A stretch of 64,000 bases of DNA from the NCBI GenBank assembly GCA_031425695.1, contig JANPJV010000116.1:120-64119 (forward strand), given 5' to 3'. Each line of letters begins with the position of its first letter. The first letter of the stretch is position 1. The translations under genes and the position numbers were made by a program. Positions 39,541 through 45,745 of this stretch are shown piece after piece. This DNA is from Rhodanobacteraceae bacterium. Its GTDB lineage: Bacteria; Pseudomonadota; Gammaproteobacteria; Xanthomonadales; SZUA-5. A model generated the notes under the pieces. The model worked only from the letters and a program-made list of their open reading frames with translations. It was not told where the DNA came from and made no database searches.

Positions 39541-40713
39541 TCAGCGAAAATTGCGCTCGCGCAGGGCGCGCATCGGCTCCAATGCGAGCTCGAGCAGGGT
39601 GCGGCGTCCGGTCAGGACGCGCGCCTCGCCGGTCATGCCGATGCGCAACGGCATCTGTGGACCGCTGCCGATCGGCAGCGCTGCCAGTGCGAAGAATTCC
39701 GGCGCGGTGCGGCCGCGTTCCGGGGTCGGGCTGATGAAGGTCAGTTGCGTGCGCACCGAGCCGTGGCGCTGATAGGGATAGGCGGCCAGCAGCAGCCGCA
39801 CTTCCTGCCCCGTCCGCACGCGCGGCACGTCCGGCTCCGGCAGCACCAGGCGCACCTGCGCCGCGGCATTTTCGCGCGCCAGCTGACACAGCTCGGCCCC
39901 AAGCGCGATCACGCTGCCTGGTGTCTGTTCGGTCAGGCTCACGACGACCGCATCGTATGGCGCACGGATCGATTCGAGGTCGCCCTGGCTTTCGCGCAAT
40001 TGGGCGCGCAATGCGCCGCTCTGCACGCCCAGCTTGTCGACCAACAGCGCCTCTTCGCTGCGCTCGCGTGAACGCTGGTCGATTCGTTCCTGGCGTTGGC
40101 GCCGCAGTTGCTGTAGCTGCTGTTGGGCGAGTACGCGGGCGCTCTCGGATTCTGCGACGACCAGCTGGTCCGCGAGCAACGTGAGCTGGGGCAAAAGCCC
40201 ATCGGCCACGGCCTTTTCCTTGCGCGCGACGATCGCTCGCGTGGCGGCATGGTGCTGATCGCGAAAGTCGAGCTCGCGCCGCGCCAGCAGCAGCTGCGCA
40301 TCGTATCCCGCGAGCTCGGACCGATGCGCGAGGTCACGCTGCACGGTCTGTTCGGTGAGTGCGTGCTGGTCCTGGCCGACCTGCTGCAGACGTGCATCGG
40401 CGTCGCGCACGCTGTCACTGCGAATCGCGAACAGCTCGTCGCCAGCCTTGACCAATTGCCCCGCGCGCACTCGGACGCTCGCGAGCTGTCCGCCCACGCT
40501 CGCCTGAACCGGCGCGGCGCCATCCACCGGCTCGATGACGAATGGCGCGACCACCGTTTCCGGCAGCTGGAAACCGACCGCGAACAGAGCCGCCGCGAGC
40601 GCCAGCGAAATCAGCAACCAGCCCGTCCAGCGCGCGACCTTTGCCGGCGGGTCGACAGGCAACAGGCCGGAAGGTTGGTCGAAGGAGCGGTCGGGCAGCG
40701 CTGGCGCGCTCAT
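39541..40713 (-). CDS. HlyD-family membrane fusion / secretion protein
   Basis: N-terminal TM (WLLISLALAAALFAV), biotinyl-lipoyl-like hairpin (G.L..V.V..GQ.VKAGD.LF.I), long coiled coil, C-terminal beta-barrel (..PLRIGMTGEARV). Confidence 0.9.
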   Translation of the reverse strand: MSAPALPDRSFDQPSGLLPVDPPAKVARWTGWLLISLALAAALFAVGFQLPETVVAPFVIEPVDGAAPVQASVGGQLASVRVRAGQLVKAGDELFAIRSDSVRDADARLQQVGQDQHALTEQTVQRDLAHRSELAGYDAQLLLARRELDFRDQHHAATRAIVARKEKAVADGLLPQLTLLADQLVVAESESARVLAQQQLQQLRRQRQERIDQRSRERSEEALLVDKLGVQSGALRAQLRESQGDLESIRAPYDAVVVSLTEQTPGSVIALGAELCQLARENAAAQVRLVLPEPDVPRVRTGQEVRLLLAAYPYQRHGSVRTQLTFISPTPERGRTAPEFFALAALPIGSGPQMPLRIGMTGEARVLTGRRTLLELALEPMRALRERNFR

Positions 40714-40735
40714 GAGTGGAGTCCCCTTTGAGCGT

Positions 40736-43700
40736 TCATGACGACGGCCCCAACTGCTGGCTCGATAAATAGAAATACAACCCGCGCTTCTCCATCAGCT
40801 CGTCGTGCGTGCCGACCTCGGCGATACGGCCAGCGTCCATGACCACGATGCGATCGGCCTCGCGAATGGTGCTCAAGCGATGCGCGATGACCAGGCAGGT
40901 GCGGCCCTTGGTGAGCTCGCCGAGATTCTTCTGGATTGCGCGCTCGCTCTCGGTGTCGAGGGCACTGGTCGCCTCGTCGAAAATCAGGATCGGCGGGTCG
41001 TGATAGATCGCCCGCGCGATGGCGATGCGCTGGCGCTGGCCGCCGGAAATAGCCAGCCCCGTCTCGCCGACGCGTGATTCGTAGCCGAGCGGGAGCCGCT
41101 GGATGAAATCGTGCGCGTTGGCCATCTGCGCTGCCCACAGCACGCGCTTCATGTCCGGCTGCGGATCACCGAACGCGATGTTGTTCAAGATGGTGTTGTC
41201 GAACAGGTGATTTTCCTGCAGCACGAAGCCGATCTGCCGGCGCAGGTCGCGGTGGTTGAGTGTCCGGCTGTCGATGCGGTCGAAGTAAACTTCGCCGGAC
41301 GTGGGATCCAGCAAGCCGCAGATCAGCTTGACCAGGCTGGTCTTGCCGCAACCGCTGCGGCCGACCAGCGCATAGGTCTTGCCGGCGGGAACTTCCAGCG
41401 AGATCGACGACAGGATTTCGGGCGATTCGGGTCCGCCGAAGCGCAAGCCGACGTTGTGCAGCCGGATATACCCTTCGAGCGAGCGCACCGGCTGCAGGCG
41501 AGAACGGTCGCGCCCCTGCTCGGGCTCGGGCTCGATCACGTCGTTCAATCGGTTGAGGAGCACGCTCATGAACTGCAGGCCATCCCAAACGCCCAGCGCG
41601 CGCAGGATGGCGCTCGAAGCCATGGCCATGATGCTGCTGAAGGCGACGAAGGCGCCGACGGTCATCTCACCGGCGACGACGCCGCGAGCGCCAGCCCACA
41701 GGAAGATCACGGTAGCCATGAAGCCCACCGCCTGCAGCGCGCTCTGGTAGCTCATCATGGTGAAGTTGCCGCGGAACTGCTGCTGCGAAACCTTCAGGAA
41801 TGCCGCCAGCATCTCGTCGCGAAAGCTGGCTTCGGCACCCGCCGCCTTGACCGCCTCGATCCCCTTGATTGCATCAATCTGGTGCGAGGCATAGCGACCG
41901 TATGCGCTCTCCAGGTCGGCAAACAACGGTCGCAACACCCGACGCGAAAACAGCATCAGCCCAGCGTACAAGGGTGCGACCAACAGGAACAGCAAGGTGA
42001 GCTTGAGCGAATAGATCGCCATCAGCACGAGGCAGCCAGCGAGCTGTACGCTGGCGAGCAGGCCATCAACGCCCTGCTCCACCAGGAACTGGCGCAACTG
42101 GCGCGCACCGTCCAGCCGCCGCTGGATGTCGCCGGTGCGCCGCGACTTGAAATAGCTCATCGGCAAGGCCAGCAGCCGCCGCGTGAGGAAGTCGAGCACG
42201 GCGCTGTCGATGCGCACCGCGACAAAGCTCAGCAGGTATTGCTGGATCACGCTCGATGCCAGCAGGAACACCAGTACCGCAACCATCGCCGGCAGCATCA
42301 CCGTCAGCAGTTGCAGGTCACTGTCGACGAGCACCTTGTCGACGACGAACTGGGTGAACACGGGGAACAAGAGGCCGAGCACGCTGACCAGCGCGGCAAG
42401 GCCGGCGGCCAGGCGCAGCGCACCACTGTGTTCGAGCAGGAAGGGCCACAGCCAGGCGAGCCCGGCAGCGTTTTCAGGGGTGCTCGCAAACTCCTGCGTG
42501 TAATCGTAGAGCGCCGCGTAGCCGGTCCATTTCTTCAGGAATTCCTCGCGCGGAACGGCCAGGCAGGCGCGCGCGGGGTCTGCAATGTGGACGCTCTTGG
42601 CGTCGACGCGGTAAACCACCACCCAATGATTGCCGTCCCAATGGCAGATCGCCGGTAGCGGCATCTGATCCAGGTGCTGGGGCGACACCTTGAGCGCACG
42701 CGCCGGCAGGCCGAGCTCATTGCCGGCCGCGCAGAGCGCTTTGAGACTGGTGCCATCGTTCGCGGTCTGGCAGAGCTCGCGAATGCGCGAAAGGCTGACC
42801 GCACGTCCGAAATGCCGGCACACCATGGCGAAGCACGCCGCGCCGCAATCCATCTCGTCGATCTGCGGGACAAATGGGAAGCGGCGGATGCGCGCGCGTG
42901 CTTCGCTCTTGCCAGCAACCGTCTCGCTACGCTCTTCGGCGTCGGCGGTCTTGTTGCGGACCCGCACGTCGGCAGGCAGCAGCTCCTCGGCAAAATCCAG
43001 CGGAATCCGCGCCTCGCCGGTGCCATGGTATTGCGCGATGCGCTCGCGCAGGAGCTTGTCGAATTCGGGAAAGCGCTGTCGCAGTGCATTGACCGATGCG
43101 ACTTCCAGCACCAGCAGGTCGCAGTCGCTCACCGCCTCGACGGTAGCCGCGCGCGACGCATCTTCCAGCATCGCGCGCTCGCCGAAAAACTCGCCTTCCC
43201 GATAGAAGGCGCGATGGACCGGCTGCTCCCGCGGACCGCTGTAGATCCAGACACGCCCGGCCCGCAGCACATACATGGGGCCGGCGCTCGCCCCCTCACT
43301 CACGATCAGCTCGCCCTTGCGCACACGCAGCGGCTTGAGCTCCGCCATCAGCGCGCGCAAGGCGGGCGCCGGCAGTCGCCCGAAATTGCTGAACTCGTAG
43401 AGAAAGGCATGCAGCGTGCGCCAGCGCGCCAGCAGCTCCAGGGCCTCGCGCAAAGCAGGCACTTCGCTGGCCAGCGCCAGGAAATGCGCGCGATCGAGGC
43501 GCAGCGCTTCGACCGTGGTACTGGCACGGATGCTCGCCCCACGCACGCCGCGTTCAGCTAAGGCCCCTTCACCGAACTCGTCGCCCGGCGTCAAGCGATT
43601 GAGGGACAGCTCCGCACCGCCGGCTCCGGTCTTGAGCACGCGGGCGCGGCCGCTGACGAGCACATAGAACGCGTCGGCCGGATCGCCTTGACGGACAATC

Positions 43701-45571: not shown

Positions 45572-45589
45572 CGCGCGCGAGCAGTGGAA

Positions 45590-45745
45590 TCAGGCAATTC
45601 CGAGCTGCTTGAGATTGTTGGAGCGGCTCCTGCCACCGATGACGTCCTGTTCGGGTTCCAGATCAGTGCCGTCGATCTGATTGGGAACCGGTTGCGAGGC
45701 GTCGTCACCGCTGGTCGGTGGGTTTGAATTGTGAGTAGTGTCCAT
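45590..45745 (-). CDS. putative double-glycine-leader peptide P2 (51 aa)
   Basis: GAGGA 6 nt upstream of the ATG. MDTTHNSNPPTSGDDASQPVPNQIDGTDLEPEQDVIGG / RSRSNNLKQLGIA. Confidence 0.55.
   Translation of the reverse strand: MDTTHNSNPPTSGDDASQPVPNQIDGTDLEPEQDVIGGRSRSNNLKQLGIA

Follow-up and report, generated by a model that had tools for sequence, protein, structure and literature searches.

What do ATP-binding cassette (ABC) exporters that combine a C39 peptidase with cyclic-nucleotide-monophosphate-binding (cNMP) domains send out of the cell, and which partners do they need? Such exporters are present in almost every cyanobacterium, and we find them here also in Xanthomonadales-like Gammaproteobacteria, Burkholderiaceae, Actinomycetes and Gemmatimonadota; the substrate of HetC, the member of this type found in Nostoc, has been sought for three decades and, to our knowledge, no exported product is known for any cluster of this kind. 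The question is raised by a locus at positions 39541–45745 of a 64-kb stretch of contig JANPJV010000116.1 from a Rhodanobacteraceae bacterium; this whole stretch was analysed, is called the window hereafter, and gives all positions below that are not tied to another locus. The locus is a compact case, as three intact, clearly delimited precursor peptides, predicted to be unmodified and of directly searchable mass, would be served by an intact exporter, and it makes testable the ligand of the cNMP modules, the rule followed by the leaders and the role of a SurA-like partner protein.

Organization of the Locus

The original prediction for this stretch was a maturation and export locus for double-glycine (GG) peptides, built on a C39 ABC transporter with cNMP domains and accompanied by an HlyD-type protein, and domain and family comparisons support it. 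The six elements that it had named are all found on the minus strand, at the coordinates and in the order of transcription that it gave: the precursor P2 (51 amino acids, aa; 45590–45745, with GAGGA 5 nucleotides (nt) before its ATG); an accessory protein (314 aa; 44567–45511, in an open reading frame (ORF) that extends to a GTG at 45571); the remnant of a tetratricopeptide repeat (TPR) gene (44174–44591), with Pfam matches to TPR_10 and TPR_12; the precursor P1 (43876–44076), which does have the predicted 66 aa; the exporter (40736–43879); and an HlyD-type membrane fusion protein of 390 aa (39541–40713), which matches HlyD_3, HlyD_D23 and Biotin_lipoyl_2 in Pfam and has one N-terminal transmembrane helix (residues 26–44). 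A third precursor, P3 (52 aa; 35452–35610, plus strand, with GAGGAG 7 nt before its ATG), is unlinked and lies 4 kb away. P1, P2, P3, the 314-aa accessory protein, the exporter and the HlyD protein are all called genes in public data, and all of them are without a name.

The Exporter

In Pfam, the domain order of the exporter is twice cNMP_binding, Peptidase_C39, ABC_membrane and ABC_tran, i.e., two CAP_ED-like modules ahead of the peptidase, then a complete transmembrane domain (TMD) and nucleotide-binding domain (NBD), as had been read from the sequence. The cNMP-binding profile PF00027 is matched over two stretches with an E-value of 2.6e-38, so that the N-terminal modules do fit the profile expected of them; PF03412 is matched with an E-value of 4e-38, and PF00664 and PF00005 are matched as well. 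Among structures of the PDB, the best matches of the N-terminal 300 residues are the cyclic-nucleotide-binding domains of PKG and PKA (E 1e-16 to 1e-20), and the best relatives of the C39-TMD-NBD part are PCAT1 and ComA (E 1e-101 to 1e-105).

The residues that such a protein would need are in place. The first cNMP module (aa 53–137; 43469–43723) has the phosphate-binding cassette FGEGALAERGVRGASIRA and the second (about aa 170–270; 43070–43372) the cassette FGERAMLEDASRAATVEA; the Glu and Arg of the cassette (FGE...R) are intact in both (E104/R113 and E234/R243), and each module retains them in about 17–18 of 20 homologues. In the C39 domain (aa 334–459; 42503–42880), Q339, C345, H418 and D434 fall on the catalytic positions of LahT150 and ComA, and the segment also aligns with that of PCAT1; the Cys and His are not displaced, in agreement with the original prediction, and the four residues are retained in 19 of 20 exporter homologues. 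There are six hydrophobic segments, followed by a Walker A motif at 840, the signature at 944 and Walker B at 964–969, with its Glu at 969. Judged from its sequence, the exporter is a peptidase-containing ABC transporter (PCAT): it has the C39 catalytic residues, a six-helix TMD, a full NBD and GG-leader substrates nearby. By analogy with other members of that class, cleavage after GG coupled to export is to be expected of it.

The ORF of the exporter spans 1047 aa. Its homologues begin at residue 21 of this ORF, and a protein of some 1027 aa from the GTG at 43819 is likely; the predicted overlap between the stop codon of P1 and the GTG start of the exporter is, therefore, uncertain.

A Predicted SurA/PrsA-Like Partner

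The most conserved partner of the exporter is the accessory protein, the SurA/PrsA-like nature of which had been missed by the original prediction. We examined the loci around accessory genes, 5 from reference genomes and 42 from metagenomes (related loci are cited below by number, such as L002). Wherever a locus extends far enough downstream, the accessory gene is followed on its own strand by that of a cNMP-type C39 exporter, often with a gap of 20 nt or less or with overlapping genes, and this pairing holds at an accessory identity of 24–32%, in Pseudonocardia, in Gemmatimonadaceae, in an uncultured Actinomycete and in other Actinomycetes. HlyD follows the exporter in diderm lineages only (L002, L004, L008, L010, L012 and L054). 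The accessory family is large: an HMMER search of 1.84 billion cluster representatives returned 1,463 representatives at 50% identity, 1,013 of them with an E-value below 1e-10, and almost all of the 150 best matches listed have 280–410 residues. No plasmid-borne copies of the subfamily were found in PLSDB.

The start of the accessory gene had been placed so as to give a protein of 334 aa, 18 nt after P2. All homologues start at the position of the ATG at 45511, which has GGAG 5 nt upstream, and the start is most likely this ATG, giving 314 aa without a hydrophobic N-terminus; with this start the gap to P2 is 78 nt, not 18 nt. We also considered an N-terminal membrane anchor, as encoded by the 334-aa ORF from GTG 45571, and rejected it, because the hydrophobic extension is absent from all homologues and it is ATG 45511 that has the fitting Shine-Dalgarno sequence. 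The accessory homologues have hydrophilic N-termini, and neither a signal peptide nor a lipobox was found in them.

No match to the accessory protein was found in Pfam, Rotamase included, or in NCBIfam, and its kinship is seen in its predicted structure. The AlphaFold2 model, built on an alignment of 13 homologues, has a mean predicted local distance difference test (pLDDT) score of 82.5, with 194 residues above 90; it consists of a helical N/C chaperone domain with an inserted parvulin-like domain. When the model was compared with the PDB by Foldseek, 35 of the top 36 matches were foldases of the SurA/PrsA/PEB4/Cj1289 type, the remaining one, at rank 2, being a leptospiral hypothetical protein; the probabilities of these 36 matches range from 0.66 to 1.00, the 12 matches with an E-value of 1e-3 or less are all foldases except for the leptospiral one, and isolated parvulin domains come after the top 36. 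A profile search of the PDB with the accessory family gave the P1 parvulin domain of SurA as its sole match (E 0.18). Where SurA reads 'GFHIL', with the His of the G-x-H-I motif, the profile of the accessory family reads 'erlllL', i.e., the His is replaced; the family has, on the other hand, invariant motifs of its own, F-R-Y..L..A...W-L and A-A-R-E-A-R. From the model and the alignments, we infer that the accessory protein is a cytoplasmic, non-catalytic, peptide-binding relative of the parvulin chaperones.

Precursors and Their Shared Leader

P2 consists of a leader MDTT...IDGTDLEPEQDVIGG and a core RSRSNNLKQLGIA (13 aa, charge +3, 1455.83 Da), P1 of a leader MINSS...ALADLAVEAGDEIKGG and a core PLSDSGWGGSARLNHNESQTLDDSM (25 aa, charge −3, 2673.17 Da), and P3 of a leader MHPND...IKIEDLPVESGKDADVKGG and a core PAYMKLGDIKAEVAPNRP (18 aa, charge +1, 1969.05 Da). 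The three leaders follow one plan: their N-terminal part is acidic; next comes a phi-x-D-L box, usually with a Pro within two residues after it, then 5–10 variable residues and the end [DE]-[VI]-x-G-G. The shared end had been read as D-[EV]-I-[KG]-G-G, in which P2 was one residue out of register. Position −4 is hydrophobic (I in P1, V in P2 and P3) and Gly-Gly occupies −2/−1; the canonical hydrophobic helix pattern at −7/−12/−15 is not followed, since P2 has E at −7 and P at −8, and the D-L box stands at a variable distance, at −10 to −14.

A hidden Markov model (HMM) was built from 28 leader ends. In the window, it gives 17.9 bits to P3, 15.8 to P1 and 15.5 to P2, the next best score being 3.2 bits; in the collected loci, where the background stays under 6 bits, about 50 matches exceed 11 bits; nearly all of these are small ORFs, mostly 100–700 nt upstream of the accessory gene. 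The expectation that short ORFs with a GG leader would be conserved beside homologous transporters is, to this extent, borne out. The next best score in the window belongs to a candidate fourth precursor (38214–38345, minus strand; ...ELDLVAGG followed by VEMDG), which we rejected, as 3.2 bits is background and the core would have five residues. A 49-aa ORF that a gene caller places upstream of P2 (45754–45903) was set aside as well, as it has neither the leader motif nor any conservation.

Each precursor belongs to a conserved family. The P1 type, in which a Gly-rich stretch is followed by [WL]-L-[NQ]-H-N-E-[TS], recurs in the relatives L006, L014 and L015. In these Rhodanobacteraceae-like loci it takes the form of polyproteins (L014 1271–1945, L006 904–1260 and L015 28–363), with 2 or 4 tandem leader-core units per ORF of the pattern ..QDLTPPQLDxIKGG, then G-rich-WLNHNETxxSD..; a cut at every GG of such a polyprotein would still not part a core from the leader that follows it. 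Within the conserved HNE[TS] of the P1 type there is an N-x-S/T sequon. The P2 family comprises 15 clusters (E 1e-9 to 1e-26), the cores of which share the motif C-x-NNLKQ-[ML]-G-[IL]-[AG], and the P3 family 12 clusters (E 1e-11 to 1e-29) with P-[AIV]-[YF]-[MI]-x-x-[GED]-[DG]-[IV]-K-G-[EN]-V-x-P-x-R-P; the P3 homologue of L004 sits 1.2 kb past HlyD. Directly after the stop codon of P3, a 12-bp GC-rich hairpin with a T-run (35619–35646) lies between P3 and the convergent katG (35664–38000, minus strand) and is probably a bidirectional terminator.

P1–P3 match no NHLP or Nif11 family model of NCBIfam or Pfam at E-values up to 10, and the precursors form three families outside NHLP, Nif11, HetP and DUF37. 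The P3-type core of the window and of the family members P0191–P0201, [YF]-[MI]-K-x-[DE]-G-[IV]-K-G-E-V, looked to us like the N-terminal strand of Hcp, the tube protein of the type VI secretion system; this likeness found no support and was dropped, as the Pfam search was empty and two PDB profile searches returned no Hcp.

The three cores are hydrophilic (grand average of hydropathy −0.5 to −1.0), have no Cys and are not amphipathic, one of them being strongly acidic. The original prediction had noted that the locus holds no modification enzyme and that the cores lack Cys; both statements stand, and the simplest assumption is that the products are short and linear. Most likely, what is exported here are short hydrophilic peptides of linear form, which look more like signals or interference peptides than like membrane-active or pore-forming bacteriocins.

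Proposed Mechanism

We consider it likely that the locus serves to mature and export GG precursors in a nucleotide-dependent way, with the accessory protein as an adaptor, and that its products are signals or interference peptides. P2, P1 and P3 would be translated with the acidic, Pro-rich leaders described above. The cytoplasmic accessory protein, which has lost the parvulin catalytic His, would bind the leader or the precursor and present it to the exporter, as a chaperone or adaptor; the C39 domain would cut after Gly-Gly; and the linear, hydrophilic cores of 13–25 residues would be expelled by the ABC core with the help of HlyD and of a TolC-type channel encoded elsewhere. Through the two cNMP modules, export would hinge on a nucleotide messenger inside the cell, and the peptides, once released, would serve as signals or interference peptides. 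The genes, domains, catalytic and ligand-binding residues, synteny and conserved leaders and cores are read off directly, and the fold of the accessory protein is that of its model, whereas leader binding by the accessory protein, the gating and its ligand, the use of TolC and the role outside the cell are what we infer. The conservation of the binding cassettes throughout the family makes it plausible that export is gated by a nucleotide. The ligand could be either a cyclic nucleotide, as the sequence of the modules suggests, or ppGpp or GTP, by analogy with HetC, the N-terminal domain of which binds ppGpp (Kd 59 µM) and GTP, not cAMP or 2-oxoglutarate (PMC10986499).

One has to weigh several points against this proposal. 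The locus is known here from sequence and models. The failure of the HetC domain to bind cAMP in vitro means that the ligand is possibly no cyclic nucleotide. The TM-scores of the accessory protein in the Foldseek comparison are low, 0.2–0.4, because the domain arrangement differs, and the protein could act on the transporter, or be unrelated to export, instead of binding leaders. The locus has no gene for an outer-membrane channel. Precursors are likewise missing where one would look for them: about half of the related loci, many of them short contigs, have no recognisable precursor nearby. No recognisable precursor was found within 3 kb upstream near the exporter of L002, L012, L025, L027, L043, L045 and L048, and yet L002 and L012 have 7–10 kb of upstream DNA; as is evident from P3 of the window, a precursor need not be linked. 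Finally, the TPR gene, the kinase gene next to P3 and the hybrid sensor kinase gene adjacent to the locus are all disrupted in the window, and the signalling context, if there is one, may be decaying in this genome.

Possible Roles of the Exported Peptides

The proposal leaves room for several roles outside the cell. The first is cell-cell signalling, in which the peptides, as pheromones, would be recognised by receptor-type Ser/Thr kinases whose TPR or beta-propeller domains are periplasmic or, once taken back into the cell, by TPR proteins of the cytoplasm; we regard it, tentatively, as possible. An intact, standalone 259-aa TPR_10/12 protein is encoded between the accessory gene and the exporter in L002, L006, L015 and L054. 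What had been predicted as a TPR remnant in the window is the pseudogene of this protein: only residues 1–48 and 192–258 are left, in two frames, with an internal deletion, a frameshift and an in-frame TAG, and by this alignment it is a true pseudogene. In L008, L010 and L054/L055, a protein that joins a kinase, a transmembrane segment and TPR_10/12 repeats is encoded no more than a few kb away; in L056, the gene of such a protein comes straight after the P2-like one, and L014 holds a fragment of a Ser/Thr kinase. In the window, a possible partner of this type (31898–34993, plus strand; Pfam Pkinase) ends 460 nt upstream of P3 and has a Zn-ribbon-like N-terminus, the kinase domain, one transmembrane helix and a beta-propeller. 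An in-frame TAG (32150–32152) separates its Gly-loop/Lys region from the rest of the kinase and may mean a pseudogene, a sequencing error or read-through. That receptor-type Ser/Thr kinases recur near the system hints at a sensing partner; also in favour are the cores, which are short and hydrophilic and, within a type, conserved, and the part that HetC of Nostoc/Anabaena PCC 7120 has in developmental signalling, in heterocyst differentiation (PMC10986499, PMC4133259). Against this, the co-location is loose and is a raw count without a background rate, Ser/Thr kinases with TPR repeats are common in these genomes, and both the kinase gene and the TPR gene of the window are broken.

The second role is suggested by the cargo itself. 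We scanned 12 peptides of the P2 family against Pfam, the window's P2 and 11 relatives, and 10 of the 11 relatives match positions 9–22 of the PF07596 (DUF1559) profile, which is the sole match for eight of them and one of two for the others; the window's own P2 gave no match. One natural peptide, P0185, with the core AARMQCSNNLKQIGLA, passes the Pfam cut-off (24.0 bits against 23.3; E 4.8e-5). A second peptide type of the relatives, with the core LLPAVQKVREAA, is encoded once in L054, directly upstream of the P2-like gene, once in L010 and four times in L056; when the neighbouring L054 cores LVGMLLPAVQKVREAAAR and MKCQNNMKQMGLG are joined, they match positions 1–22 of PF07596 contiguously, with 30.7 bits and an E-value of 4e-7. 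The P2 core of the window, RSRSNNLKQLGIA, keeps NNLKQLGIA and has a Ser instead of the Cys. One has to keep in mind that P2-type cores cover positions 9–22 of a profile of 268, which is a likeness to a motif and not membership in DUF1559. On these profile matches, the P2-family cargo appear to be copies of the conserved segment at, or just after, the N-terminal helix of DUF1559 proteins, which we take to be prepilin-like; the motif may be functional mimicry or the relic of a captured gene fragment. DUF1559 proteins form a large paralogous family that is described as apparently confined to Planctomycetes; P. limnophila has 68 of them (PMC10632474).

In L056, the stretch 1443–3382 carries the four LLPAVQKVREAA-type GG peptides, then a truncated accessory gene of 223 aa, a P2-type peptide and the kinase-TPR protein; there is no exporter within 9 kb.

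The cores of the P2 type and of the LLPAVQKVREAA type could, then, be interference peptides that mimic pilins, interfering with the assembly of pilin-like filaments in other bacteria or being sensed through it. If functional, such a match between cargo and a pseudopilin motif would stand for a type of activity new among secreted peptides. The profile matches, the four LLPAVQKVREAA-type precursors and one P2-type precursor of L056 and the expansion of DUF1559 in Planctomycetes speak for this role; we nevertheless find it rather doubtful, as the match is 13–22 residues long and passes the Pfam cut-off in a single natural peptide, the window's P2, with Ser for the Cys of most relatives, scores below the reporting limit, P1 and P3 cores have no Pfam match to DUF1559, its later parts included, the likeness could be a relic of fragment capture without functional meaning, and the unknown function of DUF1559 leaves no target mechanism to state. 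A wider combination of these ideas, which we think unlikely as a whole, would be a phylum-spanning machine of a SurA-like protein and a cNMP-C39 exporter, with one leader type and second-messenger control, in which part of the cargo, P2 included, are DUF1559 mimics directed against the filaments of, e.g., Planctomycetes; the same leader rule would then lead to the HetC substrate (HetP-like, KIxDL...GG).

That P1–P3 are classical unmodified bacteriocins or microcins, which would kill close relatives in the manner of colicin V/CvaB, seems improbable to us. The C39-ABC exporter with HlyD is indeed the architecture of class II microcin and bacteriocin exporters, relatives of the exporter are annotated as 'cyclic nucleotide-regulated ABC bacteriocin/lantibiotic exporter', and the cyanobacterial clusters of this type were named bacteriocin clusters (PMC3140520). 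However, the locus has no immunity-like small membrane protein; the cores are 13–25 residues long, hydrophilic and not amphipathic, one of them strongly acidic; and the core motifs persist among relatives with accessory proteins of only 50–68% identity, which would be unusual for bacteriocins under arms-race selection.

Relatives do have modification genes beside this export module, namely for a full LanB dehydratase in L008 (7598–10843), for a B12-binding radical SAM (S-adenosylmethionine) enzyme in L004 (11874–13808) and L017 (3–572), next to Cys-containing peptides of the P2 and P3 types, and for a methyltransferase-like protein in L010 (5494–6480). Cys-rich cores occur in Pseudonocardia (L007) and in Leptolyngbya. 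With such enzymes and cores in relatives, the export module, as a family, would serve modified and unmodified peptides. That P1–P3 themselves are precursors of peptides made by the ribosome and modified after translation (RiPPs), altered before export by enzymes encoded elsewhere in the genome, seems improbable to us as well, since no homologue of the L004 radical SAM enzyme was found anywhere in the 64-kb window, no modification enzyme was found among the genes scanned flanking the locus and P3, and the cores of the window have no Cys, P2 having lost that of its family. As for L007, seven or more GG peptides are encoded in its stretch 3886–8866; they have the leader E-T-[IV]-x-D-L...G-G and cores of some 30 residues that are rich in Cys. 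One of the exporter-like copies of this locus has the catalytic Cys replaced (RQTAEVGAGAAC).

Other Features of the Window

Divergent from P2, the window encodes a hybrid two-component sensor (45944–50006, plus strand) with a Reg_prop/Y_Y_Y propeller, HisKA, HATPase and a receiver. It is seemingly frameshifted near 49640, before an AraC-type helix-turn-helix that continues in another frame (49635–50006), and the annotated tail of the sensor kinase reads as out-of-frame sequence. The listed start of a 3163-codon ORF (49909–59400, plus strand) overlaps the end of this region; with its very Gly-rich start, at 72% GC, and its many repeated domains, this ORF looks like a giant adhesin or an autotransporter-like surface protein. 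Rfam and tRNA scans of the window gave no match, and a promoter scan of 35000–46500 gave sites no more numerous than in shuffled controls.

Comparison with Known Systems

With the classical PCATs (PCAT1, ComA, CvaB and LahT), the exporter shares the C39 Gln/Cys/His/Asp, the TMD-NBD core and, in its substrates, the hydrophobic −4 position of the leader. It differs from them in about 320 extra N-terminal residues with two cNMP modules and in what appears to be an obligatory SurA-like partner; the leaders of classical PCATs have a regular hydrophobic helix at −7/−12/−15, whereas those of the window are Pro-rich and have the D-L box instead.

The kinship with NHLM-type (NHLP/Nif11) export systems that the original prediction suggested does not hold. 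The likeness consists of GG-leader export with an HlyD-like protein and of the best-scoring NCBIfam model, TIGR03796; this model, however, gives 523 against a cut-off of 853.3 and matches from residue 334 onwards, with nothing of the cNMP region, and the remaining scores of this model set, which also holds TIGR03794 and TIGR03797, are far below the cut-offs as well (379 vs 709 and 46 vs 156). Other curated models fare no better (TIGR01193, 384 vs 523.85; TIGR01846, HlyB, 519 vs 725.55), and no equivalog cut-off is reached. We rejected NHLP/NHLM membership, as the exporter is below every curated cut-off and the peptides match no NHLP or Nif11 model.

The accessory protein has in common with SurA, PrsA and PEB4 the helical chaperone domain with the inserted parvulin-like domain and, locally, a likeness to the P1 domain of SurA; it differs in its predicted cytoplasmic location, in the replaced His and the missing Rotamase match, and in having motifs of its own.

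The closest counterparts are found in cyanobacteria. Wang, Fewer and Sivonen, following Dirix et al. (2004), described in 2011 145 cyanobacterial 'bacteriocin' clusters in seven groups, of which groups I, II and VI (57, 23 and 6 clusters) have a long-type C39 ABC transporter with an N-terminal CAP_ED domain, HlyD and a rotamase-domain 'SurA', and they reported the HetP motif KIxDLxYLEx10GG (PMC3140520). The locus shares with these groups the CAP_ED-C39 exporter, HlyD, the 'SurA' and small GG precursors, and the HetP-associated motif resembles the D-L...G-G leader of the window; the locus differs in coming from a high-GC organism, the closest named relatives being Xanthomonas and Rhodanobacteraceae metagenome-assembled genomes, and in that its SurA-like protein is below Pfam and NCBIfam detection and has lost the parvulin His.

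Genes annotated as peptidylprolyl isomerases (PPIases) lie beside or just past the exporter-HlyD pair in Leptolyngbya, Nostoc and Tolypothrix: plasmid pLBY of Leptolyngbya boryana encodes an 81-aa GG peptide, a 'peptidylprolyl isomerase', a MauE/DoxX protein, the cNMP exporter and HlyD, and plasmids of Nostoc sp. HK-01 and Tolypothrix PCC 7910 encode the exporter, HlyD and one or two PPIases. In Burkholderia stagnalis, the order is HlyD, an unannotated parvulin-like protein of 250 aa, then the exporter, and this protein aligns remotely, in a collinear way, with the accessory family (hhalign E 8e-4, probability 24%). The rotamase/SurA component of the cyanobacterial groups has its counterpart in the window because the accessory protein is SurA/PrsA-like by its predicted fold and remotely collinear with this Burkholderia neighbour.

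The statement in the original prediction that cNMP-domain C39 exporters are functionally uncharacterised is outdated: the cluster type was catalogued in 2011 (PMC3140520), and HetC was shown in 2024 to be an active Cys protease, in which the protease and ATPase residues C347, H420 and E970, as well as the cNMP region, are essential (PMC10986499). By published positions, HetC (1044 aa; C347, H420, E970) and the window's exporter (1047 aa; C345, H418, E969) are collinear within two residues, with the same domain order and six transmembrane helices; HetC lacks a neighbouring gene for a membrane fusion protein, and no GG precursor has been recognised near it.

On balance, the locus is probably a proteobacterial member of the 'long-type' PCAT clusters best known from cyanobacteria, a kind of cluster already known from genome mining and of which one member, HetC, has been studied. 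What is new here is the recognition, from its model, of the unannotated partner of the exporter as a degenerate SurA/PrsA-like protein; the single leader type that, by alignment, is common to all precursors, with P1, P2 and P3 each in a conserved peptide family; the likeness in sequence of the P2 core to the N-terminal motif of DUF1559 pseudopilin-like proteins; and the recurrent neighbourhood of receptor-type Ser/Thr kinases and TPR proteins. As leads, the locus offers the apparently universal SurA-like partner, a cargo with a candidate pseudopilin motif and a shared leader rule, which may point to the substrate of HetC.

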